A DNA stretch of 64,000 nt from Candidatus Woesebacteria bacterium (GTDB taxonomy: Bacteria; Patescibacteriota; Microgenomatia; UBA8517), in NCBI GenBank assembly GCA_020061305.1, contig JAGUYM010000014.1:49372-113371 (forward strand). The letters are read 5' to 3'. The position numbers and the translations under genes are program-made. Positions 1 through 29,732 of the stretch are shown here, piece after piece. The stretch's first letter is position 1. Each line of letters opens with the position of its first letter. The notes beneath the pieces were generated by a model. The model searched no databases. It saw only the letters and a list, made by a program, of their open reading frames with translations, and was not told where the DNA came from.

Positions 1-1106
1 GGAGTACATTTACATTCCCTCTTAAGATCACCTAAATATCCACAAGGACAAGGATTGGCAGCGGCAATTAGCATAAAACTAGCAGGGAAATTAACACTTC
101 CTGCGATTCTTGTAATTGATACTTTTCTATCTTCCAAAGGTTGCCTCAAAGCTTCAAGTGTGCCTCTTGAGAACTCAGGGAATTCATCCAAAAACAAAAC
201 TCCATTATGTGCAAGTGAAATTTCCCCTGGATGTGGGTTAGTCCCCCCACCAATTAATCCAATTAAACTGGTTGTGTGGTGAGCTGTTCTAAACGGTCTA
301 GTCCTGACCAACCCTTCTCCCGCAGGTATAAGTCCTGACACAGAATAAATTTTAGTAACTTCCAATGCCTCTTCTTCATTTAATGGCGGTAAAATTCCTG
401 CTGTTGCACGAGCCAACATTGTTTTACCAGCTCCAGGGGTTCCAACAAGAAAGATGTTGTGTCCACCTGCTGCAGCTATTGTCATTGCCCTTTTTGCAGA
501 TTCCTGTCCAATTATCTCAGCAAAATCAAACTCAACAACTTCGTGATCAGTGTATCGTGAACTGTGAATTGTGTGTTTTAATTTTTCAATCTTTTTAATC
601 CCATTTAAATGTGCAATTAATTCTGAGAGAGATTTAACAGGATAAACATCAATTCCAGACAAAACTGAGGCCTCATTGGCAGATTCACCGGGAACAAAAA
701 CACTTTTAATTCCTTTTTGTTTAGCAGCCAAACCTAAAAGAAAAACTCCCTTTGTGTGTCTTAAATTTCCATCAAGAGAAAGTTCACCATAAAAAAATGA
801 TTTCTCGATGGGTAACTTAACTAGCCCCATTGAAGCTAAAATTCCAATTGCAATTGGGAGATCATACAAAGAACCTTCTTTGGGAATATCAGCCGGAGCA
901 AGATTAACTACAATTTTTTGATTTGGAAATTCTATGTCAGAATTTAGAATTGCAGTTTTTACTCTTTCTTTTGCTTCCTCAATCGATTTATTGGGTAGGC
1001 CAATTATATTAAATCCAGGGAAACCTTTACTGAAAACATTTACCTCAACTTCTATAAGATTAGGCTCTAAACCAAAATGACTTGCAGAAAGAATTTTGGA
1101 TAACAC
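1..1106 (-). CDS. comM: Mg-chelatase-like AAA+ protein ComM/YifB, C-terminally truncated by the window edge
   Basis: Manual translation of the minus strand from a GTG at 1106 gives [25 protein letters not shown]...GFNIIGLP, a Walker A GTPGAGKT, and the conserved LFLDEFPEF and C-x-C-G zinc motifs. It is absent from the ORF track only because it runs off position 1. Confidence 0.8.
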
Positions 1107-1259
1107 TTTAAAAAAGTATGATACAAATAGATTTTAATTACAATTCTTAAAAGTTCCTAATGCACCAGGAACTAGGGACCTTTCGTGACTAAAATATTAA
1201 GAAAAGCAAGTTTGTACAAGCAAAATATATAGACTAGTGGTTGTATGATGCTTTAAAGG

Positions 1260-1413
1260 ATCGTCTTCTCGAAAGGAATTTATAAATTATGTAAGAATTG
1301 CATTTAAAAGTGCAAAAGAAACTGAATATTGGCTAAAGTTGTTTAAAGAATCAATAGAAATTACTAAAATTTTAAACTCAAGCACCCTTACATTAAAGAG
1401 TAAAATATAGTAA
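1260..1413 (+). pseudogene. C-terminal remnant of a four-helix-bundle (Avd-like / 23S-IVS protein family) gene
   Basis: One frame translates to ...GSSSRKEFINYVRIAFKSAKETEYWLKLFKESIEITKILN. This matches the family C-terminal pattern (KEFinfl.IA.gS..ElEyqL..a) but there is no N-terminal half and no start codon. Confidence 0.4.
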
Positions 1414-1422
1414 AATTATTTT

Positions 1423-3132
1423 ATGCCAAAGAAAATTGCTCTAATTCTTCTTTCTTCACTCTTATTTATTAATTCGCTCATCATGCCTTTTGCAGTTGTC
1501 AAGGCAGCAGACGAAGAACCTTCTACTTGGTACAATCAAGGTTTTACTGATTGGTATGCAAAAGTATACGGAGATGAGTCCCCACCATCAGAAATTTTTG
1601 GAGAGCGCTACACAGCAGCCCAAGTTCAATGGATTATATATTCACTTTTTGCATTTCCGATAAATTTTCTAGGAAGTAAAATGCAAACAGTCACAGCTTG
1701 TTTATACAGTGTATCAAACCCAATTATAAATATAAATGATCTGTCGTGTGCACAAGACATTGCTTCGCTGCTAACGGATGCATTTAAGTTGATGAACATG
1801 TCTGGAATTATAACCGTTGGACAAGGCCCTACATCTTTCACCGAAGCTATTGTCTACGACTTTCAAAACAGACAATTATCTGGAATAAAATATACACAAA
1901 ACATAGTATCAAGATTTGGTCTAGTATCAGTTGCGAAAGCACAAGGTTTTGGGTATGGCGCAGTTGACGGATTACAAAAATACTGGCAGGGCTTTCGAGA
2001 TATGGCATATGCCTTATCCGTATTGGTCGTAATTGTTTTTTCCTTCATGATTATGTTCAGAGTTAAATTGTCACCACAACTAGTTATTTCCGTCCAATCT
2101 GCTTTACCAAAAATTGTTGGGGCCTTAGTGTTAGCCACCTTTTCGTATGCAATTGCAGGTTTTGTGATAGATTTTTCATACGTGGTCGGTGGATTGTTTG
2201 CATCGTTGATGTCACTTGCTGGATTTGTCAGCACAAACGGACAACAAGGAACAGCATTCCAAATTGCTTTCAACCAAATAATGCCAATTCAAGGAACCCA
2301 AGCTACTGGTGGATTTTATATCTTATTTTGGATGTTTGGATACACATTAGCATTTTTCCTTACGGCAGTTGTGGCGTTACTATCAACAGTTGTTGGGTTG
2401 TCAGTTTATGGCTTTGTTGTAGGTCTAGTTATGGTTTTGTTGTCTGTATGGATACTAATACTCATGGTTTGGTATATGATTAAAGTGCCTTGGGTTTTAC
2501 TTAAAAATTTAGTTAGTTTGTTTGTATCGATAGTCGTAGCTCCAGTTCAAATTGTTGCTGGGGCGCTTATTCCTTCAATTGGTTTTAGTGTCTGGATTAG
2601 AAAGATAATTGCAGAAGCATTAGTTTTTCCATTAACAGGTCTTTTTATGTTTTTAGCTGGTGCAACACTGCAAGCATCAATGGGAGCAAGTGGAGGTCAA
2701 ATGTTACAAGGGCTTGCTTCTATAATAGGAATACAAGTACCGCAAACAAGCTTATGGGCCCCTCCAATTTTGGGTTCAAGTGCAGATATGGCAGGGATAA
2801 TTTGGCTATCTGTAAGTTTTGTTTTCATTACAATGATACCTAAGGCAGTTGATATCATGAAGATGCTTGTCATGGGTGCTAAATTTGACTATGGTAGTGC
2901 AATAGGTGAAGCAGCTGGTGCATTTGGTATATTACCAACAGCGCAAAAGGCTGTTCAAGGTACATTTAGTGATATCGGACAAACTTGGGGGACTCAACAG
3001 ACTGTTCCATTTATAAAAAGTTTGTTTCAAAGAAGAGATCGTTATGGAATGTCAAGTGTAGATTATGATGAAAGGTTCAGACAACTTAACCCAGATCTTC
3101 AAGCTTCGGCTGGACCAAGAAACAAAAAATAG
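1423..3132 (+). CDS. polytopic membrane protein with cleavable signal peptide, first gene of the T4SS-like locus; candidate VirB6/TrbL-like channel component by context only
   Basis: 569 aa. The N-terminus is MPKKIALILLSSLLFINSLIMPFAVVKAADEE (signal peptide plus AxA site), followed by more than 10 hydrophobic helices, many glycine-rich. Confidence 0.5.
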   Translation: MPKKIALILLSSLLFINSLIMPFAVVKAADEEPSTWYNQGFTDWYAKVYGDESPPSEIFGERYTAAQVQWIIYSLFAFPINFLGSKMQTVTACLYSVSNPIININDLSCAQDIASLLTDAFKLMNMSGIITVGQGPTSFTEAIVYDFQNRQLSGIKYTQNIVSRFGLVSVAKAQGFGYGAVDGLQKYWQGFRDMAYALSVLVVIVFSFMIMFRVKLSPQLVISVQSALPKIVGALVLATFSYAIAGFVIDFSYVVGGLFASLMSLAGFVSTNGQQGTAFQIAFNQIMPIQGTQATGGFYILFWMFGYTLAFFLTAVVALLSTVVGLSVYGFVVGLVMVLLSVWILILMVWYMIKVPWVLLKNLVSLFVSIVVAPVQIVAGALIPSIGFSVWIRKIIAEALVFPLTGLFMFLAGATLQASMGASGGQMLQGLASIIGIQVPQTSLWAPPILGSSADMAGIIWLSVSFVFITMIPKAVDIMKMLVMGAKFDYGSAIGEAAGAFGILPTAQKAVQGTFSDIGQTWGTQQTVPFIKSLFQRRDRYGMSSVDYDERFRQLNPDLQASAGPRNKK

Positions 3133-3155
3133 CGAATACCACTCATCCTTTATCC

Positions 3156-4736
3156 CTAGACAACTCCTCTCTTTGACAACTGTCTATAAACACCCATCCA
3201 TGACATATCATTGGCAAAATTAATGTTATACCATTTTTCAACTACTTCTTTGATCCATTTCACTGACTCTTTACTAAGATAAGCATTCACCTCTCCTTTG
3301 CTAGTTGGAATTTTTCTCATCAAGGTGTCAAATAATCCATTCACCACAATATTGTCCCACCCTTGCATTGCTGCCTCAGTTGAATTTTCCACTATTGACC
3401 CAACCATCCCAATGACAAATTCATTTCGTAAATGTAAAACCTCTTCTGGATCAGAAGTATCAGATGGAGCTATCCACCCTTCAATCGCGTCTGATGTTAA
3501 ATCTTTGGGTGACCATGTTGTTTGTAAGCACATAGATTTAAAGGTCAATATTCGAGGAACCATAATTCCTAACCATCCAGCATAGTCGCCAGGTTTAATT
3601 GCGTCGAAATTCATTTTGTTAAAGTCAATTGTTTCATAATTATTGTCTTGGTCGATAGCGCTTCTTGTTCGCATACCTCGAATTCGTGTCAATGGATCAC
3701 CAATCTCAGCCAAATATGCGGGGTGCATTCTAGGAATATCTAAAAACAACATTTTATTAAATTCCCTAGGTTTTCCATCATTCCCAATCAACATCTCCCC
3801 CGCCTTATTCGGGTCCGGCAATTGAATTTTTTCTTGTATTTGCGCACTCCTAAAATAAGATGATCCAAATCCTTTTATCCTTTTAATTGTGATCATGGGG
3901 CCTCTATCTCTGGCAGCATTTAAACGACCTTCCCTGTATTTTTGAAAATAAATAGCCTCAGCCAATGGGTCTGATCCTTGTAGATCAGTATTCCAAACAG
4001 CTGTTTCGAGTGTTGCTTTAGCTATACGATAAGCAAGCTGCAATGACTTTTTGGCTTCCTTATTTCTTCCCAACCTATCTTCTAGAATTTTCATAATTGC
4101 TTCCATCTCACCCTGCTCAATGTCTTTACTACTCAATCTAACTGTTCTTCCGTTAATTTCCACTCCCTCAATATGTGCAGCTTGCAATAAATCAAAAGCT
4201 TTTGAAACATTAAGACCGGGTAATTCTTTTAAAATTGTAAAATCGACACCTTCTAGTGTCCATTTTTTCGATTCAGCTTGTTGGAAAGACTGTAACAAAA
4301 ACGGTGCTGCATCCTTTGCGCTTCCAGGTATCGCGGAAGCTACCGCATAACAATGTTGGAGTCTTAGTCTTGCAACAGCTTGTCGTTTGACCAGTGGGGC
4401 ACAATTTTCATTAGAAAGTAATTCGTTTAACACCCTCATTGTTCCCTCATTCGTAGTAGAATATAATCCAGGAGTTGGTACTATCTGGTTGTCATTTGCC
4501 TCAATTTTTTCAACCAACTTTATGATTAAATTGCGTTGCTCATCTTCTGATCTTGGTAATTTTATTGATTCATTTGCTTCCGCAATTTTCTCAGATGATT
4601 CTGCAATTCTCGACAGATAATCTTCAATCACGGGCTTCCTAGGAACAGGCGCGGATTCACCTCTTTGAGCTTTCTTTCTTAATTCGCTAATTCCCCACTG
4701 TTTGCTAGCTATGATTACAGTTTCACCTTCTGCCAT
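3156..4736 (-). CDS. hypothetical soluble protein (526 aa) in the accessory locus
   Basis: Long ORF with no nucleotide-binding or relaxase motif recognised. A GTAC-heptamer module lies in its upstream region (4765-4818). Confidence 0.55.
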   Translation of the reverse strand: MAEGETVIIASKQWGISELRKKAQRGESAPVPRKPVIEDYLSRIAESSEKIAEANESIKLPRSEDEQRNLIIKLVEKIEANDNQIVPTPGLYSTTNEGTMRVLNELLSNENCAPLVKRQAVARLRLQHCYAVASAIPGSAKDAAPFLLQSFQQAESKKWTLEGVDFTILKELPGLNVSKAFDLLQAAHIEGVEINGRTVRLSSKDIEQGEMEAIMKILEDRLGRNKEAKKSLQLAYRIAKATLETAVWNTDLQGSDPLAEAIYFQKYREGRLNAARDRGPMITIKRIKGFGSSYFRSAQIQEKIQLPDPNKAGEMLIGNDGKPREFNKMLFLDIPRMHPAYLAEIGDPLTRIRGMRTRSAIDQDNNYETIDFNKMNFDAIKPGDYAGWLGIMVPRILTFKSMCLQTTWSPKDLTSDAIEGWIAPSDTSDPEEVLHLRNEFVIGMVGSIVENSTEAAMQGWDNIVVNGLFDTLMRKIPTSKGEVNAYLSKESVKWIKEVVEKWYNINFANDMSWMGVYRQLSKRGVV

Positions 4737-4764
4737 AGCAATATTTTACCATTTTTATTCCCAC

Positions 4765-4818
4765 TTATTCCACTTTGTGAAAAGAGGCAGTACAGAGTAC
4801 ACAGTACTAAGTACAAAG
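4765..4818. repeat. dispersed promoter-proximal module copy A: TTATTCCACTTTGTGAAAAG followed by a GTAC-heptamer array
   Basis: Copy A is near-identical to copies at 5338-5384 and 6210-6282. All three sit 20-60 nt upstream of minus-strand gene starts. Confidence 0.7.
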
Positions 4819-5337
4819 AAAGAACAAAAAGAAGAAAACTTCGTAGAAATAGCTAATGAAATTAGTATTAAGTCAATTTGTAGAAAAAACAACGAGTAAG
4901 CAAGACAGGCAACGTCTATTAATTTTTAGAAAGGTTTTTTGTAACAAAATAATATACTCCCAAGAAGAAGGCTATTGACAGTATTGCCCAAAAATAAAGT
5001 GTGTTCATTTTTTAATTTTCTTTACAATAAAGTATACCATAATCAGTAAAATCGCACTTGCAAAACTAGCAATTGTGTTAAACCTTATAATATCATTAAA
5101 TTCAATCATTTTTTATTTCCCTGTTCAATAATTATAACACCAGCACTCAAAAACAGACCGCTGAATAGTGTTCCCTAAAATAACGAGAATAAAATATCTT
5201 TTGGATTTCGAATATTTCCCAACAGAATACTTATTACGCCTGAAGCAAACCACGCAACTCCGATGTTGGATAAAAATTCAGCAATCAACTGAAGTTTTTG
5301 TGATGACTTATCCATCATATTAAAATTGTAGCATAAT

Positions 5338-5384
5338 TTATTCCACTTTGTGAAAAAGGACAGTATAGAGTACATAGTACATAA
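5338..5384. repeat. dispersed promoter-proximal module copy B
   Basis: Sequence TTATTCCACTTTGTGAAAAAGGACAGTATAGAGTACATAGTACATAAG. The first 20 nt are almost identical to copy A. Confidence 0.7.
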
Positions 5385-5481
5385 GAGACTTGACTACGTT
5401 AAAGCAAAGCTTACCACTTCGTGGTAGTACAAAGTTCACAGAAAAAAATAGGGCCAGAACTAGGCTGTTTAAAGTCCTTAA

Positions 5482-5808
5482 TTAAGAGTACGATAAAAAT
5501 CTAATATCTAATTTACTATCTAATGCTTCTGCAAGTTTTTGAAGGAAATTTACAGTTGGACTTATATTCCCTTTTTCTAATCTAGAAATTGCAGATTGAG
5601 TTGTACCAAGTTTTTTTGCAAGTTCCTTTTGGGAAAGATCTTTTTTTCTTCTGATATCAATCATTGCCTGAATCATTGCAAATTCTGGCTGTTGTCTGTC
5701 CCACTCGGCCTTAAACTCTGGATCTTTTAGCTGTTTGTTTAAAAAAACATTAAAATCTAGATGATTTCTCTTTTCTGGTGGAATATTTAAAACTTTTTTG
5801 TTTGTCAT
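5482..5808 (-). CDS. higA: XRE-family HTH antitoxin (HigA-like)
   Basis: The HTH is QKELAKKLGTTQSAISRLEKGNISPTVNFLQKLAEAL. It lies immediately downstream of a Gp49/HigB-family toxin gene, in the toxin-first order typical of higBA. Confidence 0.75.
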   Translation of the reverse strand: MTNKKVLNIPPEKRNHLDFNVFLNKQLKDPEFKAEWDRQQPEFAMIQAMIDIRRKKDLSQKELAKKLGTTQSAISRLEKGNISPTVNFLQKLAEALDSKLDIRFLSYS

Positions 5809-5820
5809 ATACCGTATATG

Positions 5821-6183
5821 CTATATTATACTGTTCATTCTGTCAATCGCTATTTTTAGTTCTTTGGTTGGAGTTTTTTGAGTTTTCTTCTTAAAGATGT
5901 GGAGAATGTAATATTCGTTATTAAAGATTGTGTAAAAAGCTCTGATATTTAATTTACTTTTGATTCGTAGTTCGTATAAATTGCTCTGCAATTTTTTGAT
6001 TTGTGGGGGTTTTAAAAACGGACCGTTGTTTTGAAGGAGCGAGAAATAACTAAATACTTTTGTTGAAATTTCGTTATCTTGATCAGTGAGAAAATCGTTA
6101 ACAGGATAATCCCCTCGTTTAGTCTGATAAAATTTAACAACCCACGTTTTCTGAATTGCAATAGAGCTGTCATTGGTTGACAT
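5821..6183 (-). CDS. higB: HigB/Gp49-family (RelE-superfamily) addiction-module toxin
   Basis: The C-terminus, LYELRIKSKLNIRAFYTIFNNEYYILHIFKKKTQKTPTKELKIAIDRMNS, matches the Gp49 signature (lyELRi...yRi.Yf...i.lLhgFkKKtqktP..ei..A). The start is placed at the internal ATG (6183) because the longer ORF runs through the GTAC repeat array. Confidence 0.75.
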   Translation of the reverse strand: MSTNDSSIAIQKTWVVKFYQTKRGDYPVNDFLTDQDNEISTKVFSYFSLLQNNGPFLKPPQIKKLQSNLYELRIKSKLNIRAFYTIFNNEYYILHIFKKKTQKTPTKELKIAIDRMNSII

Positions 6184-6209
6184 AATATAAATATATACCA
6201 AAACTATAT

Positions 6210-6282
6210 TTTGTGAAAATGTTGGTGTAGTTGCACCATGAACAGTACAGAGTACACAGTACTTAGTACAAAGAAAGTACTG
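6210..6282. repeat. dispersed promoter-proximal module copy C (TTTGTGAAAA + CAGTACAGAGTACACAGTACTTAGTACAAAG)
   Basis: Shares the GTAC array of copy A almost base for base and lies directly upstream of higB. Confidence 0.7.
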
Positions 6283-6316
6283 TGAAACAACAAGCAAGTT
6301 GCAACAAAAGCTTCAC

Positions 6317-6382
6317 ATAGTACGATAAAGTAGTACCTAGTACAAAGTACGCAGTACAGAGTACAAAGTACGCAGTACAGAG
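6317..6382. repeat. GTAC-heptamer array D (AGTACNA units, about 9 copies) in the divergent higB / 6401 intergenic region
   Basis: Sequence CATAGTACGATAAAGTAGTACCTAGTACAAAGTACGCAGTACAGAGTACAAAGTACGCAGTACAGAG. Confidence 0.7.
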
Positions 6383-6400
6383 AATAGACAAACGCAAAAC

Positions 6401-6780
6401 ATGGTTAATAGCTATAAAGATTTGATTGTTTTTCAGAAATCTAAAACTCTAACTATTGACGTAATCAAGTATTTTAAGAAAAACAAAACAGACAGATCAA
6501 ATGATTTTTTACTTAACCAAGTTTTTAGATCTGTAAGTTCAGTTGGAGCTAATTTAGCTGAAGGTTTTGGAAGAAATTACAGTCAAAATTTTAAGCAATT
6601 TGTTGGAATTGCCAGAGGTTCATCTTTCGAGACTGAATATTGCTTGAAATGTTATTAGAATTAAACGATTTTGACTCAAAAATAATTAAGGAATTTATAG
6701 AAAAAAATATAGAAATAAATAAAATGTTAACAGGATTAATGAAAAATATGAAAGGAGAATCGACTAAGTACTAAGTACTC
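6401..6780 (+). pseudogene. frameshifted four-helix-bundle protein (Avd-like / 23S rRNA intervening-sequence protein family, PF05635-like)
   Basis: Frame 1 gives ...NQVFRSVSSVGANLAEGFGRNYSQNFKQFVGIARGSSFETEYCLKCY*. The expected continuation, LEMLLELNDFDSKIIKEFIEKNIEINKMLTGLMKNMKG, is in the -1/+2 frame from about 6648. This is a single-nucleotide indel or sequencing error. Confidence 0.55.
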
Positions 6781-6794
6781 TGTACTATGTACTG
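6764..6794. repeat. GTAC-heptamer array E immediately upstream of the 6807 gene
   Basis: Sequence CTAAGTACTAAGTACTCTGTACTATGTACTG, in the same orientation relative to the downstream gene as in copies A-C and as upstream of dnaA. Confidence 0.7.
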
Positions 6795-6806
6795 CGTCTT
6801 CGGCGT

Positions 6807-7808
6807 ATGGAACAACATCCAATACCACAGCAGATAAGCTCATATCAATTTAAATTGGTGGGGGACATGACTTTAAAACAATTTTTTCAAGTTGCAGGAG
6901 GCGCTTTGATTGGTTTATTGTTTTATTCAACCAACCTACATCCAGTTATTAAATGGCCAATAATTCTTCTTTCAACTGGTATTGGTGCCGCTATGGCCTT
7001 TTTACCGTTTCAAGAAAGACCTTTAGAAAAATGGATAATAGCATTTTTTAGAAGTATCTACTCTCCCACGCTTTTTACATGGCAAAAAACCGAGAAGCCC
7101 CCTGTCTTTTTTACTGAAACTGCGACCGCCCCAGAAATAACTAATGTGGGCTCACTTAATCAAAAATCAGCCCTTTCTCCTCTGGAGTTGGCCGAACAGA
7201 CCTTTTTAGGTAAAATTACCAGCCTTTGGGGGACTCAACAACCAATAAACAATGGTCAACAGACAACAGTCCAAAGTCAACAGTCGCAAGTCATAAGTCC
7301 ACAGTCAGCAGTCAATAGTCCACAGTCAGTAGTCAATAGTCAACCAGCAGTAAGTGTTCAGGTTCCCTCCCAAATCCCAACTATAATTACTAAATCTGCT
7401 CCGAAACTTGTCGTTGAGGAAACTTTGCCACAAGTCCACAGTCCACAGTCCACAGTCCACAGTCTTGATGCAGTAAATATTCAGCAAAAAACTATCACTT
7501 CCAATGAAGCTGAATTTTCCCCTGATGCAGCTCCCCCATACCCACCAACCATTCCTAACACCATTGCAGGACAAGTAATGGATTCGCAAAAAAAGATCAT
7601 TGAAGGAGCCATTATGGAGATAAAAGACGGAACAGGTAGGCCTGTTAGGGCCTTAAAAAGCAACAAAGCGGGTCATTTCATAATTGTTACTCCACTCGCA
7701 AATGGTAAATATGAAATAATTACTGAAAAGGACGGATACACATTTGATCCAGTTTCATTTGAAGCTAAAGGGGAGCTAATTAAACCAATAGCTATCCGTG
7801 CTAAATAG
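6807..7808 (+). CDS. 2-TM membrane protein with PrgI/VirB3-like N-terminus, a Q/S/P/V-rich heptad-repeat linker and a C-terminal beta-rich domain
   Basis: The N-terminus has two hydrophobic helices (FFQVAGGALIGLLFYS.. and ILLSTGIGAAMAFLPF) followed by ERPLEKWIIAFF, and the gene lies directly upstream of VirB4, as PrgI/VirB3-family proteins do. The middle is encoded by CAGTCAA and CAGTCCA heptamer repeats. The C-terminus is GRPVRALKSNKAGHFIIVTPLANGKYEIITEKDGYTFDPVSF. Confidence 0.45.
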   Translation: MEQHPIPQQISSYQFKLVGDMTLKQFFQVAGGALIGLLFYSTNLHPVIKWPIILLSTGIGAAMAFLPFQERPLEKWIIAFFRSIYSPTLFTWQKTEKPPVFFTETATAPEITNVGSLNQKSALSPLELAEQTFLGKITSLWGTQQPINNGQQTTVQSQQSQVISPQSAVNSPQSVVNSQPAVSVQVPSQIPTIITKSAPKLVVEETLPQVHSPQSTVHSLDAVNIQQKTITSNEAEFSPDAAPPYPPTIPNTIAGQVMDSQKKIIEGAIMEIKDGTGRPVRALKSNKAGHFIIVTPLANGKYEIITEKDGYTFDPVSFEAKGELIKPIAIRAK

Positions 7809-7825
7809 CTCGGCAACTAATAATT

Positions 7826-8635
7826 ATGAACAAAGAATTAAAAATTAAAAACATGAACAACACAACAACACAAGGACAAAACACAACTCGTAACCCTAAC
7901 TCGCAGGCAGATGGCCAGTCACACACAACTGACAAGCCGATTATAGTTCCTGAGGTTAAAAATGAGAAATTGAGAAAGTTTATAACTAAAGTCCCATATT
8001 TTGGAACTCCTGACATGCCACTTACTTCAACTACTCAGGATTTTATTCCAATTGCTGATATTGCGAATGATATTGTTTTATTTAAAGATGGGGGAGCAGC
8101 TATTGTAATGGAATCTTCTTCACTTAATTTTGGGCTTTTATCAGAAAGGGAGCAAGCCGCGGTTGTTGCGGCTTTTGCAGCCCTTATAAATTCACTTTCG
8201 TTTTCGGTGCAAATCATGATCAGAACCCAAAGAAAAGATATTTCCGGTTATATCAAATATTTTGATGAAAAAAGCAAAAATATAACAAACCCAAAACTAG
8301 CTGCAATAACTGCGGACTACAGAGCGTTTATAACTGAGTCAATTAAGAAAAAAACAGTTTTAGGTAAAAGATTCTTTGTGATTATACCTTTTAATTCATT
8401 GGAATTGGGGGTCACCAAGTCCGCACAGAGCATACTTAGAAAAGGCCCTCTTCCATTCTCAAAAGATTATGTTCTAAAAAAGGCGAGGGTTGCACTTTTT
8501 CCAAAAAAAGATCATTTAATAAGACAGGCGGGCAGACTTGGATTAAAATTAAAGCAGCTCAAGACAAATGATTTGATAGATTTGTATTATTGGATTAACA
8601 ATCCTGAGCCGCCAGCGGTGAAGAAAGATATATAG
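7826..8635 (+). CDS. virB4: VirB4/TraC/CagE family, N-terminal domain only (upstream half of a split VirB4)
   Basis: The segment FIPIADIANDIVLFKDGGAAIVMESSSLNFGLLSEREQAAVVAAFAALINSLSFSVQIMIRTQRKDISGYIKY matches the conserved VirB4 N-terminal block. The ORF stops at TAG, overlapping the GTG that opens the next ORF (ATATAGTGATT). Confidence 0.65.
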   Translation: MNKELKIKNMNNTTTQGQNTTRNPNSQADGQSHTTDKPIIVPEVKNEKLRKFITKVPYFGTPDMPLTSTTQDFIPIADIANDIVLFKDGGAAIVMESSSLNFGLLSEREQAAVVAAFAALINSLSFSVQIMIRTQRKDISGYIKYFDEKSKNITNPKLAAITADYRAFITESIKKKTVLGKRFFVIIPFNSLELGVTKSAQSILRKGPLPFSKDYVLKKARVALFPKKDHLIRQAGRLGLKLKQLKTNDLIDLYYWINNPEPPAVKKDI

Positions 8636-10464
8636 TGATTAGTAAAAACATGCAAGACATTAACACAAAAAAACAAGAGCAAAACATAAATAGCAAACCT
8701 GCTGTTAAACATCCTGTGAGCGAGATTGAGGAGGGAAAACAATTGCTTGATGTAATTGCACCTGATCATGTCGAGGTGGATTTTAATCATATTAAAGTTA
8801 ACAATGTTTATTACAGAACACTTTTTATTGGAGGCTACCCTAGATTTGTTGCACCTGGATGGCTTGAACCTGTGATTAATTTTAATTCATCACTTGATAT
8901 CAGTTTTTTTGTATATCCTGTTGCAGGCAAGTCTGTACTTGATGATCTTCGTAGAAAAATTGCAGAAATGGAAGCAGAAATCTCGACAGATATTCAAAGA
9001 GGAAGAGTTGTTGACCCAGCAACAACCGCCAAACTTGAGGATGCAAGGGCATTGCAAGAACAACTTGTCAAGGGGATTGAAAGATACTTTGAGTTTTCAT
9101 TTTATATCACAATTCCTGCTAATTCAGTTGAAGAACTAAACAATGTCTCAAGACAAATTGAGTCACTTTTAGGATCACTCCTAATTATTGCAAAACCTGC
9201 GACTTTAGACCAAAAAGAGGGATTTCTTTCAACCGTTCCGTATGGACAAGATAGACTGTCAATTACCAGAAATATGGATACAACATCTGTTGCTACAACT
9301 TTTCCATTTACTTCAGCTGAGCTTAGCTCGGATACCGGTGTTTTATATGGCATAAACTCACAAAATGAGTCATTTATTATCTTTGATAGATTTTCTCTGG
9401 AGAATGGGAACATGACAGTCTTTGCTACATCAGGCGCAGGAAAGTCTTATTTCGTTAAACTTGAAGCTATTAGATCACTCATGATAGGCTCAGATGCAAT
9501 TATTCTTGACCCTGAAGCTGAATATAAAACACTTTGTGAAGCTGTTGGAGGAGAATACATTGCATTTTCATATAATTCGCCTGCAAAAATTAATCCTTTT
9601 GACCTTTCTCAGATTAGAGAAGAAGGAGAAAACCAATTAGGTCTTAAAATTCTTTCACTTCATTCATTAATGAAGGTAATCATGGGCCAAATAACACCGA
9701 CCCAAGATGCCATGCTTGATAGAGCTTTAGTTATGACTTATAAAGCAAGGGGAATTACAACTGACCCTGAAACTCAAACCAAGGAACCGCCTTTGATGGA
9801 AGATCTTTATAAAACATTAATCGGAATGGAAGTCCCGGAAGCGCTTGACTTAGCTGCTCGTCTTGAAAAATTTGTAAGAGGCTCATTCCAAGGTATTTTT
9901 GACAAACAAACAAACATTAACTTAAATAATCCATTCACTGTTTTTTCAGTCAAGGATTTACAAGAAGCCCTTCGTCCAATTGCTATGTTTATTATCCTTG
10001 ATTATATTTGGACTAGAGTTAAAAGGGATATAAAGCGTCGAATTCTAATCGTTGATGAGGCATGGCATATGATGAGGTATCCCGATACTGCAGCCTTTCT
10101 CTGGTCAGTCGTCAAAAGGGCTAGAAAATACTATCTAGGACTCACCACAATCACTCAAGATGTTGAAGATTTTCTTGGACAGGACATTGGTAAGGCAATT
10201 GTCACAAATAGCGCCTTAAGGCTTCTTCTGAAACAATCTCCGGCAGCAATTGATAAGATAGGGGAAGTTTTTTATCTCTCACAGGGGGAAAAACAACTGC
10301 TTCTGGCTGCAAATGTGGGGGAGGGCATATTTTTTGCAGGACCACACCACGCACCGATTAGAGTAGTAGCGTCAGAAGAAGAACATAAATTAATAAATAC
10401 AAGACCACAAGACAATCCATTACCAACAATGCCAAACATGAAAGCATGGAACAGGGAAGCCTAG
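8635..10464 (+). CDS. virB4: VirB4/TrbE/CagE-family T4SS ATPase, central and C-terminal part
   Basis: It carries the family block LLDVIAPDHVEVDFNHIKVNNVYYRTLFIGGYPRFVAPGWLEPVINFNSSLDISFFVYP, a Walker A FATSGAGKSY and a Walker B RRILIVDEAWHMM. It is in the -1 frame relative to 7826..8635 and open from 8608 without an ATG. Confidence 0.85.
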   Translation: MISKNMQDINTKKQEQNINSKPAVKHPVSEIEEGKQLLDVIAPDHVEVDFNHIKVNNVYYRTLFIGGYPRFVAPGWLEPVINFNSSLDISFFVYPVAGKSVLDDLRRKIAEMEAEISTDIQRGRVVDPATTAKLEDARALQEQLVKGIERYFEFSFYITIPANSVEELNNVSRQIESLLGSLLIIAKPATLDQKEGFLSTVPYGQDRLSITRNMDTTSVATTFPFTSAELSSDTGVLYGINSQNESFIIFDRFSLENGNMTVFATSGAGKSYFVKLEAIRSLMIGSDAIILDPEAEYKTLCEAVGGEYIAFSYNSPAKINPFDLSQIREEGENQLGLKILSLHSLMKVIMGQITPTQDAMLDRALVMTYKARGITTDPETQTKEPPLMEDLYKTLIGMEVPEALDLAARLEKFVRGSFQGIFDKQTNINLNNPFTVFSVKDLQEALRPIAMFIILDYIWTRVKRDIKRRILIVDEAWHMMRYPDTAAFLWSVVKRARKYYLGLTTITQDVEDFLGQDIGKAIVTNSALRLLLKQSPAAIDKIGEVFYLSQGEKQLLLAANVGEGIFFAGPHHAPIRVVASEEEHKLINTRPQDNPLPTMPNMKAWNREA

Positions 10465-10484
10465 CTTCACCTGAATTATGAATT

Positions 10485-13217
10485 ATGAATAAAACACTTG
10501 ATTTAAAAGCATTAGTTGCCATACAAGAGGCGCTTGAGCGTTTTTATCCAAGAGAATTAGGGCTTGAAGGTAGCGTTGAGTTTAAAAAATGGGGAGAATG
10601 GCCAAGCAAAGAAGTTTTTTGGGAACAACTTAAAACATATCCTGAATTTAAAAATATTAAAACTCAAAAAGAAGCTTCAGGTTTATTACAAAAGTTAATC
10701 GATGAGAAAACAAAAGGAGCAGAAGCTCCAGGGCAACCTGATTCAAATTTACCACAAAATAGAGAGGCGAATGAAGAATTAAGAAAGAAAAGTGAAGAAT
10801 TGCACACAGAAACACGGGAAGGCTCAAAACAAGCTGTTGAGACAATGCAAAAGAGGCAACAGGAAATGTATGAAGAGGCACAAAAGCTTAAAAAACAAGC
10901 AGAGGAATTAAAAAATAATGAACAACTAACCAAAGACCTTACAGGTAAAAAAATATATGCCAAAATTGAAGTAGAGGATACACCAAGCCTAGACGAAGAC
11001 AAACAACAAAAACTTGAACGCTACAAAGAACTTTCAAAAAATAAACCAGAAACTGCCAAAGAAGAACTGGCCAAAGAACTTGAAGTATCAATTGAAAAAC
11101 AATTTGCAAAAGAAGATTTAACCAAAGAAGAAATAAAATCAATTGCAAGGGAAACTGCAAGTGAAACCATAGAAACTTTATCCAAAATTGATTCTCCTGA
11201 TTACGTTCCTACAACTTATCAAACAGCAATACTTACTGCAGTTGCCGTTGATGATAAAGTTGTACCTAAGGTTGCCATATCAAAATCTGCAACAGAAATT
11301 GTAAAAAATTCTGCGGGTCATGTTGCAGTTTTTAAAATTCAGCCCGAACTTTTAACTAGAGGAATAATAGAAACTGCATTTGGAAAGGATTTTACCAATT
11401 TTGTTCTTGGTGTTGACCCTTCAAAAGTTGAGGTTACACTAGTTGAAACAATTCCCCAAAATTTACCAAGAGAAGAATTGGTTAAGTATAAAGAAGTTAA
11501 TCTTCAAAATATTCGCGAATCTCACACAAACATCTTAGAGTGGAATTCCTCTGTATTAGAAAAGGCTTCATCAGTAGGTAAAGGATATGCAGATAGATAT
11601 ATGTCTTCAGGAATTGCTAATTTTATAACAAGAAGAATTGAGGCGCTTCCTGTAAATTCTGTTGTTAAAAAAGTAGTTACCACGCCTGAAATGCAGGCTA
11701 TGTTTTTTGCAAAATTTGGAGTAGGTAGTCCTGTGGTTTGGCAATATGCAAATCCGACTTTAATGAAGCTTTTTGGCCAAAATCAATTAGCTGGCGCCGC
11801 CTTCAGCACCGTAGGAAGAATTACTGGAAAACCAATTGTAACTGCAGTTACAGGAGAAGTTGCAGGTCAGGTTGCTGGCAAAGTTGCCACGCAAGCCGCA
11901 GGTAAAGCAACGGGCGCAGGTCTTGGTGCAACGATTGGTGCAATCACTGGCTTATCGGGTGGGCCACTTGCAATTGTAACGGCAGCAGTTGGCTATGTAA
12001 TAGGTGAGGTTTTTGGTAAGGTAATTTCAAAACTTAAAGTTTGGTGGACTAAAAATAAAGATAAAATTGCGCCGATTTTGGGAGTTGGGGTAGGGTTATC
12101 CTTTGCAAGATTTGGGTTTGGACCGGCGATTTTAGGTGGTGCTGGGACTTATTTACTTTTTGGTGGTACTGCGACGGCCTTACTTTTTGGCCCAATGAGA
12201 TTTTTTGCAATTTTAGGAAGAAACATTGGAATTACAATTGCAACTCCTGTAATAGTTACCCTTTTGGTCCTCCCCCCGCTCGTCGCCTTCATTATGCTTG
12301 TCATTAACAACAGTGCCTATGTTGTACCACCAAGCCCGCTCAGTTTTAATCGTGGCGGAGTGATAACTTCTCCTTATATTGATATAACCAAAACTGCAAC
12401 CCCCCCGGGTCCGTTTGAAAATTCTGATTTACCCTTAACTGTAACATACACCATAACAATAAAGGCCAAAAAAGGACCGCTTACTAACATAAAAATTGAT
12501 TATGCATGTAGGGTAGTTAAATCTAATTCATCAACTGTTTGCCCCGAACCAAACGGAACAATCCCTACAACAACTAGCGGAATTTCACCCTCTGCCCCTT
12601 TTGTTTTTTCATATTCTCAAACTTATGATCCCCTAAATTTTGAGGACTCTTTTGTTACTGATACAGTTACTATAACCGCAGACGAACCCTCAGCAAAAAA
12701 CATTCAAGCCGCAGCAGCGGCAACAATAAAAATAGGTGAACCACCAGAAGAATGTCCAACAGAAGAATTGTGGCCTACAAGTAATGGCGTTATTACACAA
12801 GGTGCTTATACAAACGGCTCACATAAAGGGACAGAATCAATTGACATTGGTGTTAGCAGTACTAATGTTTTTACAACACATTCAGGTGTTGTGGTTTTTT
12901 CCGGTTTTGATTCATGTTATGGTAACGAAATTAAAATTAAATCTTCTTGTGGTGGAAAAGAGTTTATAAGTAGATATTCACACCTTGAAGCTCGAAGTGT
13001 TACAAATGGGGCTTCTGTTTCAATGGGGCAAGTTATTGGTAGAAGTGGAAATACTGGGACATGCACCACAGGACCACATGTTCATTATGAATTTAGATTC
13101 TGGCCAGACGGAAAGCCAAGTTGGCCAAACAACCCTCCATTCATGATGAGACCTTATATTCCAAGAGATGTTCCCAGAGGATGTGAAAATTCTATAAGTT
13201 GTGGTGTATCATTTTAG
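10485..13217 (+). CDS. T4SS-associated cell-wall hydrolase: K/E-rich coiled-coil N-terminus, glycine-zipper TM segments, C-terminal M23 (LytM-type) metallopeptidase
   Basis: 910 aa. The C-terminus is GSHKGTESIDIGV...YSHLEAR...GRSGNTGTCTTGPHVHYEFR (M23 HxxxD and HxH motifs). The middle is a G/A-rich run (GAGLGATIGAITGLSGGPLAIVTAAVGYVIG..), and the N-terminal 230 aa is K/E/Q-rich. Confidence 0.7.
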   Translation: MNKTLDLKALVAIQEALERFYPRELGLEGSVEFKKWGEWPSKEVFWEQLKTYPEFKNIKTQKEASGLLQKLIDEKTKGAEAPGQPDSNLPQNREANEELRKKSEELHTETREGSKQAVETMQKRQQEMYEEAQKLKKQAEELKNNEQLTKDLTGKKIYAKIEVEDTPSLDEDKQQKLERYKELSKNKPETAKEELAKELEVSIEKQFAKEDLTKEEIKSIARETASETIETLSKIDSPDYVPTTYQTAILTAVAVDDKVVPKVAISKSATEIVKNSAGHVAVFKIQPELLTRGIIETAFGKDFTNFVLGVDPSKVEVTLVETIPQNLPREELVKYKEVNLQNIRESHTNILEWNSSVLEKASSVGKGYADRYMSSGIANFITRRIEALPVNSVVKKVVTTPEMQAMFFAKFGVGSPVVWQYANPTLMKLFGQNQLAGAAFSTVGRITGKPIVTAVTGEVAGQVAGKVATQAAGKATGAGLGATIGAITGLSGGPLAIVTAAVGYVIGEVFGKVISKLKVWWTKNKDKIAPILGVGVGLSFARFGFGPAILGGAGTYLLFGGTATALLFGPMRFFAILGRNIGITIATPVIVTLLVLPPLVAFIMLVINNSAYVVPPSPLSFNRGGVITSPYIDITKTATPPGPFENSDLPLTVTYTITIKAKKGPLTNIKIDYACRVVKSNSSTVCPEPNGTIPTTTSGISPSAPFVFSYSQTYDPLNFEDSFVTDTVTITADEPSAKNIQAAAAATIKIGEPPEECPTEELWPTSNGVITQGAYTNGSHKGTESIDIGVSSTNVFTTHSGVVVFSGFDSCYGNEIKIKSSCGGKEFISRYSHLEARSVTNGASVSMGQVIGRSGNTGTCTTGPHVHYEFRFWPDGKPSWPNNPPFMMRPYIPRDVPRGCENSISCGVSF

Positions 13218-13228
13218 TAATATAAAAC

Positions 13229-14227
13229 ATGATAAATAACAAAAAAAAGATCTATATAGCCCTTTCCTCTGTTGCAGCATTTTCTGTTTTTATCTTAATT
13301 TATGTCATTAACAAAAATGGGCCCGATCCAGAAATATCACCATTAAAACCCAATATCCAAGGAGGGATACAAGGAGACTTTTCTAAAAAAATTGAATTTT
13401 CCCAATTTGACTACGAAATACCAAAAAATTTACCCACATTAACATTCAAGCTTCTTTCTATAAACAAGGACATTGTGGTTAAAATTAAAAACTCTCTAAG
13501 TATTGATTCAGGTATTGAAGAATTTACCGATGTAGATGAAGGGGTAAAATATTTTCTGAATACCGACGATGCTTTTTTAGTTATTACTCCAAAAGTAAGC
13601 AAAATTAAATACGGACTACACCGTTTACCCACCAATCTAAAAAATGAGTTGTCAATATCAGAAGATCAAATTAAAAACATTGCTTTGGCTTTCTTAAACG
13701 ATAAACTACTAAATAACAACTTTGTTTTGCCAAATGAGATATTATATTTAAAACATAGCATTAATAGTGAGGGTTTTGAGAAAACAAACAATAATAGCGA
13801 GGCAGTTGTTTATCAAGTTAATTTCACCCCAGCATCCGCACAAAATTATAAAATTGTAACATCAAGATCTGAAAACCCAACAACTTTTGTTCAGATTACC
13901 AAAAGTGGAGAGATTTACTATGCTGAAACGACATTGTTTGATGAAATTTCTAAAAGCCCCTCAAATTATCCAGTTAAGGGATTTGGTGATATTCAAGATA
14001 GTTCAAACGATTTCAAGCTTATTAATCTTTCAGGTGATTATTTGTCAGTATTGGAAATCTCAATTAGTAACATAAAAAAAATAATTATTAATGATATTGA
14101 AGTTGTTTATTTTTGGGACCAGAAAGTAGACAGTTTTCTTCAACCAATTTTTATACTAAATGCAGATATTGAAATTTCTGGATCTACAGCAAACAAAGCT
14201 ATCTTTTATCTTCCTGCTTTTAAATAA
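13229..14227 (+). CDS. signal-anchored extracytoplasmic protein, last gene of the T4SS-like locus
   Basis: An N-terminal TM (IYIALSSVAAFSVFILIYVI) precedes a 300-aa hydrophilic domain. It is tightly spaced after the M23 gene. Confidence 0.5.
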   Translation: MINNKKKIYIALSSVAAFSVFILIYVINKNGPDPEISPLKPNIQGGIQGDFSKKIEFSQFDYEIPKNLPTLTFKLLSINKDIVVKIKNSLSIDSGIEEFTDVDEGVKYFLNTDDAFLVITPKVSKIKYGLHRLPTNLKNELSISEDQIKNIALAFLNDKLLNNNFVLPNEILYLKHSINSEGFEKTNNNSEAVVYQVNFTPASAQNYKIVTSRSENPTTFVQITKSGEIYYAETTLFDEISKSPSNYPVKGFGDIQDSSNDFKLINLSGDYLSVLEISISNIKKIIINDIEVVYFWDQKVDSFLQPIFILNADIEISGSTANKAIFYLPAFK

Positions 14228-14273
14228 ATCAATCACTTTCTAGACCAAAGTCTTGGGGGTTTAGGACGACTTT

Positions 14274-14648
14274 TTATTCAATCCTCGCTTTCTGATTATA
14301 TAACCGATAATATGAAAAATCTTGATAGATAGTCATTATGTGTTGTTTTAAGTTTGGGAATGTATTCTCTTTTTCTTGATAAATTACTTTTCCGTATGTA
14401 ATAATGTGATTTTTAAGTTCCATTGTAGCTTCGCTACCAAAAACTATATCTATATTTACAAGTTTATTAATTTTGTTTGATAACAACTCATACAAGTAAT
14501 CATAAGTTTCATTATTTTTGTTTCCTAAAACATAGGAATCATAATCGCTATTTTGATTAGCAATTCCTTGAGCTTAAGAGCCAAAAAGAATCAAGGCTTT
14601 TACCCCCAAATTTTTTTAGTTTGATTTTTTCTTCATTGGTTAATTGCA
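14274..14648 (-). pseudogene. decayed nucleotidyltransferase (MNT/pol-beta-type NTase domain) gene
   Basis: The sequence opens MQLTNEEKIKLKKFG, shifts frame in a G5/A7 homopolymer, then reads GVKALILFGS*AQGIANQNSDYDSYVLG, where TAA replaces the conserved Tyr of the GSxARG NTase motif. Only the tail (14274..14495) survives as an ORF. Confidence 0.5.
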
Positions 14649-14675
14649 TGAGGTAATTATACTACAGATTAAAAT

Positions 14676-15791: not shown

Positions 15792-15962
15792 GTTTTAATA
15801 TTTATCATATTTTAAATAGTAGTACTAGTAGTAGTATAGGGAGATAAGTGGAAAACTCTAAATTCTAAATTCTAAATTCTAAATTACTTCGGGATATAAA
15901 TAGGTGGATAAATATGTGGATAATTGTTTATAAATTGTTGATAAGTTGATAACCTTAAAAAG
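15792..15962. promoter_or_regulatory. putative oriC: DnaA-box cluster plus AT-rich heptamer tract between dnaA and dnaN
   Basis: There is a perfect TGTGGATAA at 15915-15923 and GGTGGATAA at 15903-15911. TTGATAAG and TTGATAAC half-boxes lie nearby, and a TTATCCCAA box lies at 15964-15972, just inside the 3' end of dnaA. An (AATTCTA)x4 tract at 15856-15886 and AGTACTAGTAGTAGTA at 15817-15838 are also present. Confidence 0.6.
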
Positions 15963-17333: not shown

Positions 17334-17504
17334 GGTTGTAGCACATAGTACAAAGTACAAAGTACATAGAGGGAAAGAAAATGGAGCAGAAATATTTTTC
17401 TAAGTACAAAGTACTAAGTACTTGGCATTATTCTTTTACAAAAGTTATCCACAATTGTAAAGAGGCAATTTACAATTTATACTTTTCAATTTACAATACG
17501 CTTA
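17334..17504. promoter_or_regulatory. divergent dnaA / rpmH control region with a consensus DnaA box and GTAC-heptamer arrays
   Basis: A TTATCCACA box lies at 17445-17453. GTAC arrays lie at 17345-17369 (ATAGTACAAAGTACAAAGTACATAG) and 17401-17425 (TAAGTACAAAGTACTAAGTACTTGG). Confidence 0.55.
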
Positions 17505-29528: not shown

Positions 29529-29732
29529 ATGGCTTGGATTGAGAAAGATTTTGATGGAAGTGATGTTTTAAGAAGGTGGTTTAATCAGCCTCTGTTGTCA
29601 ATCTTTCAGAAGAAGAAACCTCAAAAGGCTAAGAAGATACCAACCGATGTAATAGTAATGGTTGACAATTGGATTGATGAAGGTGAGAAACAGAGACAAG
29701 AAAGAATTAATGAAAATAAAAAAGAGGTTTAG
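29529..29732 (+). CDS. hypothetical small basic protein
   Basis: 67-aa ORF with no recognisable motif. Confidence 0.25.
   Translation: MAWIEKDFDGSDVLRRWFNQPLLSIFQKKKPQKAKKIPTDVIVMVDNWIDEGEKQRQERINENKKEV

Follow-up and report, generated by a model that had tools for sequence, protein, structure and literature searches.

A Patescibacteria-type type IV secretion locus beside dnaN in a Woesebacteria bacterium

A 64,000-nt stretch of a Candidatus Woesebacteria genome (contig JAGUYM010000014.1; hereafter the window, within which all positions are counted and to which our data on this genome are confined) carries an intact and very well conserved type IV secretion system (T4SS) locus centred on the ATPase VirB4, directly beside dnaN. 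We read it as a chromosomal, vertically inherited Patescibacteria-type T4SS of the Woesebacteria/Microgenomatia, derived from monoderm conjugation machinery of the MPF_FATA class and co-opted for a non-conjugative role, and we give this reading a probability of about 85%. The identities of PrgI, TrsD, VirB4 and the M23 hydrolase, the conserved gene order and position, and the gradient of conservation are directly supported; we infer which proteins act as VirB6 and VirB8, what the substrate is and that the function faces a host. A preliminary description of this DNA had listed most of these parts and called the locus a VirB4-centred T4SS of the Gram-positive type reported in Patescibacteria. 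The listed parts are found where it had placed them by open reading frame (ORF) listing and translation, Pfam and NCBIfam, and the T4SS identity is borne out by the NCBIfam model NF045971, by the PrgI domain and by the excerpted text of a survey of Patescibacteria T4SSs (Quinonero-Coronel et al. 2025, PMC12102498). The genes of the system are as follows.

1423..3132, plus strand: polytopic membrane protein, 569 aa, with a signal peptide; candidate highly divergent VirB6
3156..4736, minus strand: soluble 526-aa protein in a conserved reverse-strand slot; no match in Pfam, NCBIfam or PDB
6807..7808, plus strand: extended PrgI/VirB3 homologue (Pfam PrgI and CarboxypepD_reg)
7826..8635, plus strand: TrsD-like protein, 269 aa, a free-standing homologue of the VirB4 N-terminal domain (NCBIfam, weak)
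8635..10464, plus strand: VirB4 ATPase (NF045971; P-loop_TraG; PDB 4ag5)
10485..13217, plus strand: large polytopic hydrolase, 910 aa, with a C-terminal M23 domain (Pfam Peptidase_M23)
13229..14227, plus strand: bitopic protein, 332 aa, with one N-terminal transmembrane (TM) helix and an extracytoplasmic body

Relatives were sought with one genome per GTDB species, and 407 were found. The best 80 of the 407 loci, with VirB4 67-90% identical to the window copy, form the synteny set (tblastn), which comprises Woesebacteria, Microgenomates and one Blackburnbacteria. Related loci are labelled with L-numbers; L003 is the contig whose VirB4 is 95% identical to that of the window.

The VirB4 motor and its place beside dnaN

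The ATPase encoded at 8635-10464 matches NF045971 ('VirB4-like conjugal transfer ATPase, CD1110 family') with 384 bits against a cut-off of 325 (1.2e-114), and Pfam P-loop_TraG at 1.6e-31. Its best PDB match is 4ag5, the C-domain of Thermoanaerobacter VirB4 (1e-47), followed by TrwK/VirB4 of R388, and a Walker A motif (GAGKS) and a DEAW motif are invariant in the homologue alignment. Membership of an FtsK/HerA-type ATPase family outside T4SSs, a possibility raised in the preliminary description, was rejected, as the DUF87/HerA match is weak (2.5e-7 versus 1.2e-114 for the CD1110 VirB4 model). The best 120 of the 7997 VirB4 matches, at 79-95% identity, are annotated as Patescibacteria, Woesebacteria or Microgenomates or come from mislabelled metagenome-assembled genomes (MAGs). 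The ORF opens at 8635 (609 aa), and the ATG at 8650, which gives 604 aa, is more likely the true start.

VirB4 had been drawn as one gene from 7826 to 10464. The VirB4 identity holds for 8635-10464, but the stretch before it is a gene of its own, so that the span is really TrsD plus VirB4. The ORF at 7826-8635 ends with TAG at 8633-8635, and the ATPase ORF lies in another frame, the two overlapping at TAG/GTG. The TrsD-like protein matches the NCBIfam TrsD model (2.1e-5) and the N-terminal region of VirB4_plasma, a mycoplasma VirB4 model (1.2e-5), both below the cut-offs. Its orthologues in relatives match PF26593 (TraC-like) weakly, and blastp against the gene at the same position in Pontibacillus gives 3e-20; a profile search of PDB sequences with TrsD returned no meaningful match.

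Two overlapping ORFs in different frames, with pseudogenes nearby, could also be taken for a VirB4 broken by a frameshift in a decaying, non-functional relic. However, TrsD is found in 80/80 loci, and trsD and virB4 are separate genes in 76 of the 80 species, as they are in the nearest Firmicutes systems. The ATPase homologues are themselves about 600 aa long (575-695 aa among the matches listed). Both halves are strongly constrained, with median identities to the window of 61% for TrsD and 77% for VirB4 and with invariant Walker motifs. Because the ATPase homologues are about 600 aa long and the two genes are separate in 76/80 species, the two-gene arrangement is the native state of the lineage and no lesion. 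The relic reading is already refuted by these comparative data, and we give it a vanishingly small probability. In the remaining 4/80 species (L066, L079, L080 and L084), TrsD and VirB4 are fused in one continuous in-frame ORF of 832-914 aa. The protein exists both split and fused within one order.

Relatives share the order membrane protein, reverse-strand protein, PrgI, TrsD, VirB4, large polytopic hydrolase, bitopic protein and dnaN-dnaA-rnpA-yidC. On the contigs whose ATPases are 81% and 95% identical to the window copy (L001-L003), the same order runs up to dnaN-dnaA-rpmH-rnpA-yidC. dnaN follows in every locus that extends at least 6.5 kb downstream (63/63), on the opposite strand and 1.6-7.4 kb past VirB4, and the interval between VirB4 and dnaN always holds one large polytopic protein, then a small protein with a single N-terminal TM helix. 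Where 10 kb of upstream sequence is available, the 569-aa family is always there (53/53 loci). In the window, 449 nt separate the last T4SS gene from dnaN, which is followed by dnaA, rpmH and rnpA. Many MAGs among the relatives (L008, L009, L014 and others) bear the public title 'uncultured Gammaproteobacteria bacterium' or 'Alphaproteobacteria bacterium'; since they carry a Woesebacteria-type locus with VirB4 70-88% identical, their taxonomic labels appear to be wrong.

In 67/67 loci, VirB4 is closer to its window counterpart than DnaA is (median identities 77% vs 56%), and VirB4 identity correlates with the identities of DnaN (rho 0.78) and TrsD (rho 0.78). Against L003, VirB4 is 95% identical as a protein, but its four-fold degenerate sites are only 56% identical. 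This indicates that VirB4 is kept by purifying selection and does not owe its similarity to recent transfer or exchange. Median identities to the window fall from 61% for TrsD to 48% for PrgI, 36% for the large hydrolase and 35% for the 569-aa protein. Conservation declines outward from the motor, and three outer slots vary in content. A constrained cytoplasmic motor may thus be joined to fast-diversifying parts that are exposed at the envelope or possibly exported, a pattern expected of a host-interface machine. As dnaN adjoins the block in 63/63 loci, VirB4 divergence tracks that of DnaN and VirB4 is conserved beyond DnaA, the block is probably an ancestral, vertically inherited and syntenic core locus of the origin region in this order.

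The preliminary description had instead seen an insertion between comM and dnaN, with the flanking pseudogenes as traces of an old integration. A remnant integrative and conjugative element (ICE), inserted there in this lineage and since stripped of its integrase, relaxase and coupling protein, would account for the interspersed toxin-antitoxin genes and pseudogenes. MPF_FATA T4SSs are normally found on ICEs and plasmids, and an ancient transfer from monoderms to Patescibacteria has been proposed, according to the excerpted survey (PMC12102498). However, the position beside dnaN is the same in 63/63 species, and comM flanks the block on the left in the closest relatives alone (L003, L005 and L008; 2/80 loci of the set). 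No empty site, with comM adjoining dnaN, was seen among the relatives examined. VirB4 is conserved beyond DnaA and diverges in step with DnaN, and the GC content of the block (0.34-0.38) is near that of its surroundings. No long direct repeats on either side of 1.1-14.6 kb came out of the repeat analysis, which gave short local arrays only, and no integrase was found among the window ORFs scanned with Pfam or read by eye. The toxin-antitoxin genes and pseudogenes lie in species-variable islets, and about half of the species have no extra gene there. These data argue against an ICE remnant on timescales shorter than the age of the order, and we consider that explanation very improbable. If the system was acquired, this would have happened when the Patescibacteria clade arose, as proposed in the survey (PMC12102498), and not at this site.

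Envelope parts and the VirB6 question

The PrgI domain at 6807-7808 scores 29.3 bits against a gathering score of 27 (1.3e-6), and the same protein contains a CarboxypepD_reg-like domain (2.2e-5; both Pfam). It is laid out as a two-TM PrgI domain, a Q/S/P-rich repetitive linker and a CarboxypepD_reg-like beta-sandwich. PrgI is found in 77/80 loci, typically with 320-380 aa. The length of ~330 aa in the window and comparable lengths in nearly all relatives (L005-L084) stand against ~100 aa in Firmicutes. The DNA of the linker contains 7-nt repeats of the AGTCNNN type (family D3). An Embleya plasmid also encodes a 349-aa 'PrgI family protein'.

The 910-aa protein matches Peptidase_M23 at 1.8e-18 (Pfam, residues 784-872). 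A cytoplasmic coiled-coil N-terminal region is followed by a Gly-rich polytopic TM block (~440-620), a conserved ectodomain containing Cys residues and the M23 C-terminus, and the protein probably fills the role of a VirB1/PrgK-like cell-wall hydrolase. Members of a single family fill this slot in 69/70 loci, with a varying C-terminal hydrolase domain: among 58 members we find M23 in 26, Amidase_2 in 3, CHAP in 3, NlpC/P60 in 1 and NAGPA in 1, and in most of the remaining members of the 58 no Pfam domain was detected. Two further cell-wall-active proteins are encoded outside the T4SS block, a small M23 peptidase of 250 aa (36183-36935, identified by reading the sequence) and a VanW/PG_binding_4 protein (29729-31477).

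The last gene of the block encodes a protein that had been described as signal-anchored, in agreement with the single N-terminal TM helix predicted for it. Proteins of this topology fill the slot in 67/69 loci; the anchor is kept, and the ectodomains fall into at least four classes. A single family for the last gene was considered and rejected: single-linkage clustering joined 59/69 proteins, yet their alignment shares the TM anchor only. The 332-aa class of the window has members in 16 further species, 15-27% identical to the window copy, and the protein itself has two matches in 5.8 billion proteins. Pfam found no consistent domain in 17 members of the class.

The reverse-strand slot is constant in position and varied in content. 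In 62/62 loci, the interval from the membrane-protein gene to prgI contains a large ORF on the reverse strand, and these ORFs belong to at least two soluble families without detectable relationship (E 0.5 between the two main ones). Pfam found no consistent domain in 50 of the slot's proteins, and the 526-aa protein of the window has no match in Pfam, NCBIfam or PDB. Its family comprises 103 clusters among 1.8 billion representatives. Truncation of the window protein was considered in view of relatives of 650-1080 aa and rejected; since a 522-aa homologue (P0243) is 61% identical to it, the window copy is taken to be full length.

The 569-aa protein has an N-terminal signal peptide and many TM helices, and its family (912 matches) has no Pfam domain. 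The AlphaFold2 (AF2) model, built on a 63-sequence alignment, has a pLDDT of 76.7 and a helical TM core near 90. The preliminary description had proposed looking for a VirB6 fold here, and the outcome is mixed. The best Foldseek match in PDB is 7o3v_G, TrwI/VirB6 of R388, with a probability of 0.94 and a target-normalised TM-score of 0.40 but an E-value of 0.16; TrwI/VirB6 chains are the only recurring specific match, and nothing in PDB reaches E <= 1e-3. In hhalign, the family aligns with four polytopic proteins at the VirB6 position in Firmicutes and Actinobacteria at E 8e-4, with a probability of 24%; eight unrelated polytopic proteins of the window, used as a control, give E 0.22-0.82. One of the four, from Pontibacillus, has a sub-threshold TrbL/VirB6 match in Pfam (2e-4), and hhalign against this protein alone is not significant (E 0.098). 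A profile search of PDB sequences with the 569-aa family returned nothing meaningful. On balance, the model and alignments lead us to regard the 569-aa protein as probably a divergent VirB6. It is a concrete, if weakly supported, candidate for a component rarely detected in Microgenomatia.

Two JGI metagenome contigs, 3.8 and 6.6 kb long (P0121 and P0241), carry partial genes whose products match the 569-aa and 332-aa proteins with 100% identity. The organism of the window, or one nearly identical to it, is thus present in a JGI sample.

Flanks, variable islets and GTAC arrays

The neighbours of the T4SS genes and the elements lying among them are as follows.

1..1105, minus strand: comM, partial, running off the window edge; left flank, outside the system (translation; L003 orthologue with ChlI/Mg_chelatase/Mg_chelatase_C)
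1255..1410, plus strand: C-terminal remnant of a 23S_rRNA_IVP gene (Avd-like four-helix bundle; tblastn)
4765..5380, no strand: non-coding stretch between two 43-nt direct repeats, probably a decayed cassette
5482..5808, minus strand: HTH_3/Xre antitoxin, HigA-like (Pfam HTH_3 9.4e-17)
5821..6297, minus strand: Gp49/HigB-like toxin (Pfam Gp49 4.1e-20, residues 68-154)
6333..6806, plus strand: cassette resembling an intervening sequence (IVS), with a frameshifted 23S_rRNA_IVP gene (Pfam, GTAC arrays, fold)
~14260..14660, minus strand: pseudogene of a Pol-beta-superfamily nucleotidyltransferase (Pfam Polbeta, stops masked)
14676..15791, minus strand: dnaN, conserved right-hand neighbour (translation; orthologues with DNA_pol3_beta domains)
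15903..15944, no strand: DnaA-box cluster in the dnaN-dnaA spacer, oriC-like (three boxes in 42 nt, one perfect)
15963..17360, minus strand: dnaA (translation; orthologues with Bac_DnaA)

The genes dnaN and dnaA and the DnaA boxes confirm that the locus lies next to oriC. Two further boxes are found at 16006 and 16039, and a perfect one at 17445, upstream of dnaA. The remainder of the window consists of ordinary Patescibacteria housekeeping genes.

HigBA, two decayed Avd-like genes and a decayed nucleotidyltransferase, all recognised earlier, are supported by Pfam (Gp49, HTH_3, 23S_rRNA_IVP and Polbeta). The integration that their presence had suggested is not: they are unrelated cargo of variable islets, neither T4SS parts nor integration scars. 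The interval from the reverse-strand gene to prgI differs in cargo by species, and in about half of them it holds no gene of at least 100 aa. In the window, the cargo is HigBA and the IVP cassette. L001 has a PycTM protein there (7550-8074; a domain of Pycsar effectors), and L003 has AbiEii/DUF6922 together with a CTP_transf_like gene (6824-8072). The islet before prgI appears to be a hotspot for defence and toxin-antitoxin genes. The true start of the HigB-like toxin is probably an internal ATG near 6183.

The IVP gene at 6401-6774 matches 23S_rRNA_IVP at 4e-20 (Pfam, 6401-6658) and, compared with the intact orthologue of 124 aa in L005, contains a frameshift. The second remnant, at 1255-1410, was identified by tblastn with the intact IVP genes of L003 and L001 (residues 57-130, 4e-10), which precede the membrane-protein gene in both loci. 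The nucleotidyltransferase pseudogene matches Polbeta at 2.9e-13 with stops masked, and one in-frame stop falls inside the GSxAxG motif. This remnant was also looked for at 4737-5481, where none is present (it lies at 14260-14660), and a six-frame Pfam search of 4737-5481 gave no significant match. That stretch contains repeat family D1, two 43-nt copies (4765-4807 and 5338-5380) that are 88% identical, lie 573 nt apart and end in GTAC-heptad arrays. These D1 copies may delimit another cassette, now decayed.

GTAC recurs every 7 nt (unit AGTACNN) in arrays at 4790-4814, 5370-5380, 6245-6269, 6333-6378, 6768-6792, 17348-17365 and 17404-17421. The motif GTACNNNGTACNNNGTAC occurs 13 times in the window and 0 times in shuffled sequences. 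All sites are in leaders of T4SS or oriC genes (the 526-aa gene, higB, the IVP gene, prgI, dnaA and rpmH), and none lies in 18-64 kb of the window. The same GTAC arrays, often as inverted pairs, are found in the prgI leader and the dnaA-rpmH spacer of nine or ten related species, and other related species have heptad arrays with different core motifs. Inverted GTAC-heptad arrays bracket the IVP gene and pair into a stem of ~30 bp, present in both the minimum free energy (MFE) and the centroid fold (MFE -104.5 kcal/mol, z -3.6). The stem is kept in a five-species consensus, in which the pairs are almost invariant and so provide no covariation proof. This cassette resembles the stem-bracketed intervening sequences of 23S rRNA, placed here in the leader of the prgI-trsD-virB4 operon. 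Directly before the prgI ATG, at 6794-6806, there is a small hairpin of the C(UUCG)G type, GCGTCTTCGGCGT, which is shared by five species and shows compensatory changes in two of its pairs.

Proposed function and comparison with known systems

Patescibacteria account for much of bacterial diversity, and T4SSs are among the few systems shown to be essential for their epibiotic life (in Saccharibacteria). Southlakia epibionticum ML1 cannot grow as an epibiont without its T4SS (Wang et al. 2023, cited in PMC12102498 and PMC12857230), and a 2026 preprint links VirB4 of the lineage to macromolecule transfer from hosts. In the Woesebacteria system, the two-TM PrgI/VirB3 protein and the free-standing TrsD would dock a VirB4 hexamer at the membrane, where VirB4 would power the assembly of a membrane channel or transport through it. 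The channel may be formed by the 569-aa polytopic protein, as the probable VirB6 equivalent, together with the TM block of the 910-aa hydrolase. The M23 domain of this hydrolase, which lies outside the cytoplasm, would cut peptidoglycan, so that the apparatus could span the cell's own wall or that of the host, and the N-terminally anchored 332-aa protein could serve as a scaffold or contact subunit in the VirB8/PrgL position. As the locus has no relaxase or coupling protein, contact-dependent exchange with a host cell is the function that we consider most likely, and it fits the essential Southlakia T4SS.

The absence of a relaxase, a type IV coupling protein (T4CP), VirB11 and an integrase, as first described, holds: the ORFs of the 64-kb window include none that could be recognised. 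This search used Pfam on the ORFs of the locus and on ten unassigned ORFs of 18-64 kb, and other ORFs of at least 110 aa were read by eye.

Several points weigh against our reading. No VirB2-like pilin was found in the window, where two small multi-TM ORFs are not pilin-like and the small ORFs were not all HMM-scanned (hidden Markov models), and the survey excerpts describe pilin arrays as common in this class (PMC12102498). A T4CP could be encoded outside the window, a frequent arrangement in Patescibacteria according to the same survey. For VirB6, the E-value of 0.16 in Foldseek and the 24% probability in hhalign count against the assignment, and Pfam TrbL is absent from the matches of 63/63 family members scanned, which share no consistent domain. 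The VirB8/PrgL-like role of the 332-aa protein is suggested by topology and gene position only; its AF2 model is unusable (pLDDT 37.8, 3-row alignment), and a profile search of PDB sequences with its class found nothing. The reverse-strand gene is conserved without an assigned role, and function has been demonstrated for no Microgenomatia T4SS.

The missing relaxase and T4CP would also suit a DNA-uptake (competence) T4SS like Helicobacter ComB or Sulfolobales Ced, acting with the neighbouring comM. comM adjoins the block in the window and its closest relatives, T4SS genes of the ABY1 class co-localise with comF, recG and radA in the available survey text (PMC12102498), and there are weak NCBIfam matches to CedB (2.4e-11) and CedD (2.1e-6). 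However, these scores are far below the cut-offs and the CD1110 VirB4 score, and comM is a neighbour in only 2/80 loci. In Southlakia, comEC deletion abolishes competence without loss of viability, unlike loss of the essential T4SS (PMC12857230, a 2025 review). We regard DNA uptake as quite improbable.

A bolder extension of the host-exchange reading would treat the seven-gene block next to oriC as the complete, essential host-interface machine of Microgenomatia. Its motor would be the cytoplasmic PrgI-TrsD-VirB4 set, ultra-conserved and under tighter constraint than DnaA, and its channel would consist of the polytopic hydrolase and a hitherto unrecognised, extremely divergent VirB6 (the 569-aa family). 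Host-specificity determinants or translocated effectors would occupy the three fast slots, which hold the soluble protein on the reverse strand, the hydrolase ectodomain with its exchangeable domains and the several classes of bitopic ectodomain. The GTAC arrays common to the leaders of prgI, dnaA, rpmH and the reverse-strand gene would tie expression of the machine to the origin genes. We consider this extension possible but unlikely.

The closest VirB4 proteins outside the candidate phyla radiation (CPR) are encoded on Firmicutes megaplasmids (Pontibacillus NZ_CP062975, Geobacillus pGspE55-1 and Paenibacillus NZ_CP106993); the best of them is 39% identical, and they are ~620-640 aa long and of the CD1110 family. 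These clusters have the same local order of PrgI, TrsD-like protein, VirB4 and large M23 hydrolase, and are non-mobilizable, also without a called relaxase. They differ in being plasmid-borne, in their short PrgI (100-116 aa) and in their recognisable T4SS_pilin genes, and those of Geobacillus and Paenibacillus lie beside type II secretion F-family proteins and a prepilin peptidase (pilus assembly). Their polytopic protein adjoins the operon, whereas the reverse-strand gene and the islet lie in between in the window.

In pCF10, the order prgH-prgI-prgJ-prgK-prgL encodes VirB6, VirB3, VirB4, a cell-wall hydrolase and a VirB8-like protein. This parallels the window order of 569-aa protein, PrgI, (TrsD) VirB4, 910-aa hydrolase and 332-aa bitopic protein. 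PrgJ is a full-length VirB4, unlike the split TrsD/VirB4 of the window, and PrgK has lytic transglycosylase and CHAP domains in place of M23. The likeness of the 569-aa protein to PrgH and of the 332-aa protein to PrgL is positional, homology not being demonstrated. The Trs systems of the pGO1/pSK41 type are true conjugation machines with a coupling protein, a relaxase and oriT, none of which was found in the window locus. They are alike in that theirs is the only MPF_FATA subclass with a separate TrsD beside VirB4, according to the survey excerpts (PMC12102498).

The nearest likeness is to the Patescibacteria-clade T4SSs of that survey, as far as its excerpts describe them, and a locus of this kind is already described there; it is not a genome-specific insertion. 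According to the survey, the VirB4 proteins form one monophyletic clade with a relationship to MPF_FATA and most often have TrsD as their partner; it also reports PrgI/VirB3, M23 or LysM hydrolases and no relaxases. In Microgenomatia and Paceibacteria it places these systems near dnaA, dnaN, rnpA and rpmH, and in Microgenomatia it finds VirB6 scarce and VirB8 almost never (PMC12102498). The window locus agrees in its MPF_FATA-related VirB4, the separate TrsD beside virB4, PrgI/VirB3, an M23-type hydrolase in place of canonical VirB1, the lack of a relaxase and the position near dnaA/dnaN/rnpA/rpmH. It is unlike them in that a VirB2-like pilin array and a T4CP were not found in the window. Conserved, syntenic candidates for the VirB6 and VirB8 slots, a universal reverse-strand gene and an extended 330-aa PrgI go beyond what the excerpts contain. 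The window is a clean and typical Microgenomatia example, and our additions are incremental and modest, leaving the published picture unchanged: a fixed seven-gene core, VirB4 conserved beyond DnaA, slot replacement, a candidate VirB6 and IVS-like elements with GTAC heptads. For researchers of this machine, the seven-gene core abutting dnaN, the slow VirB4 beside fast exposed parts and the VirB6 candidate should be useful.

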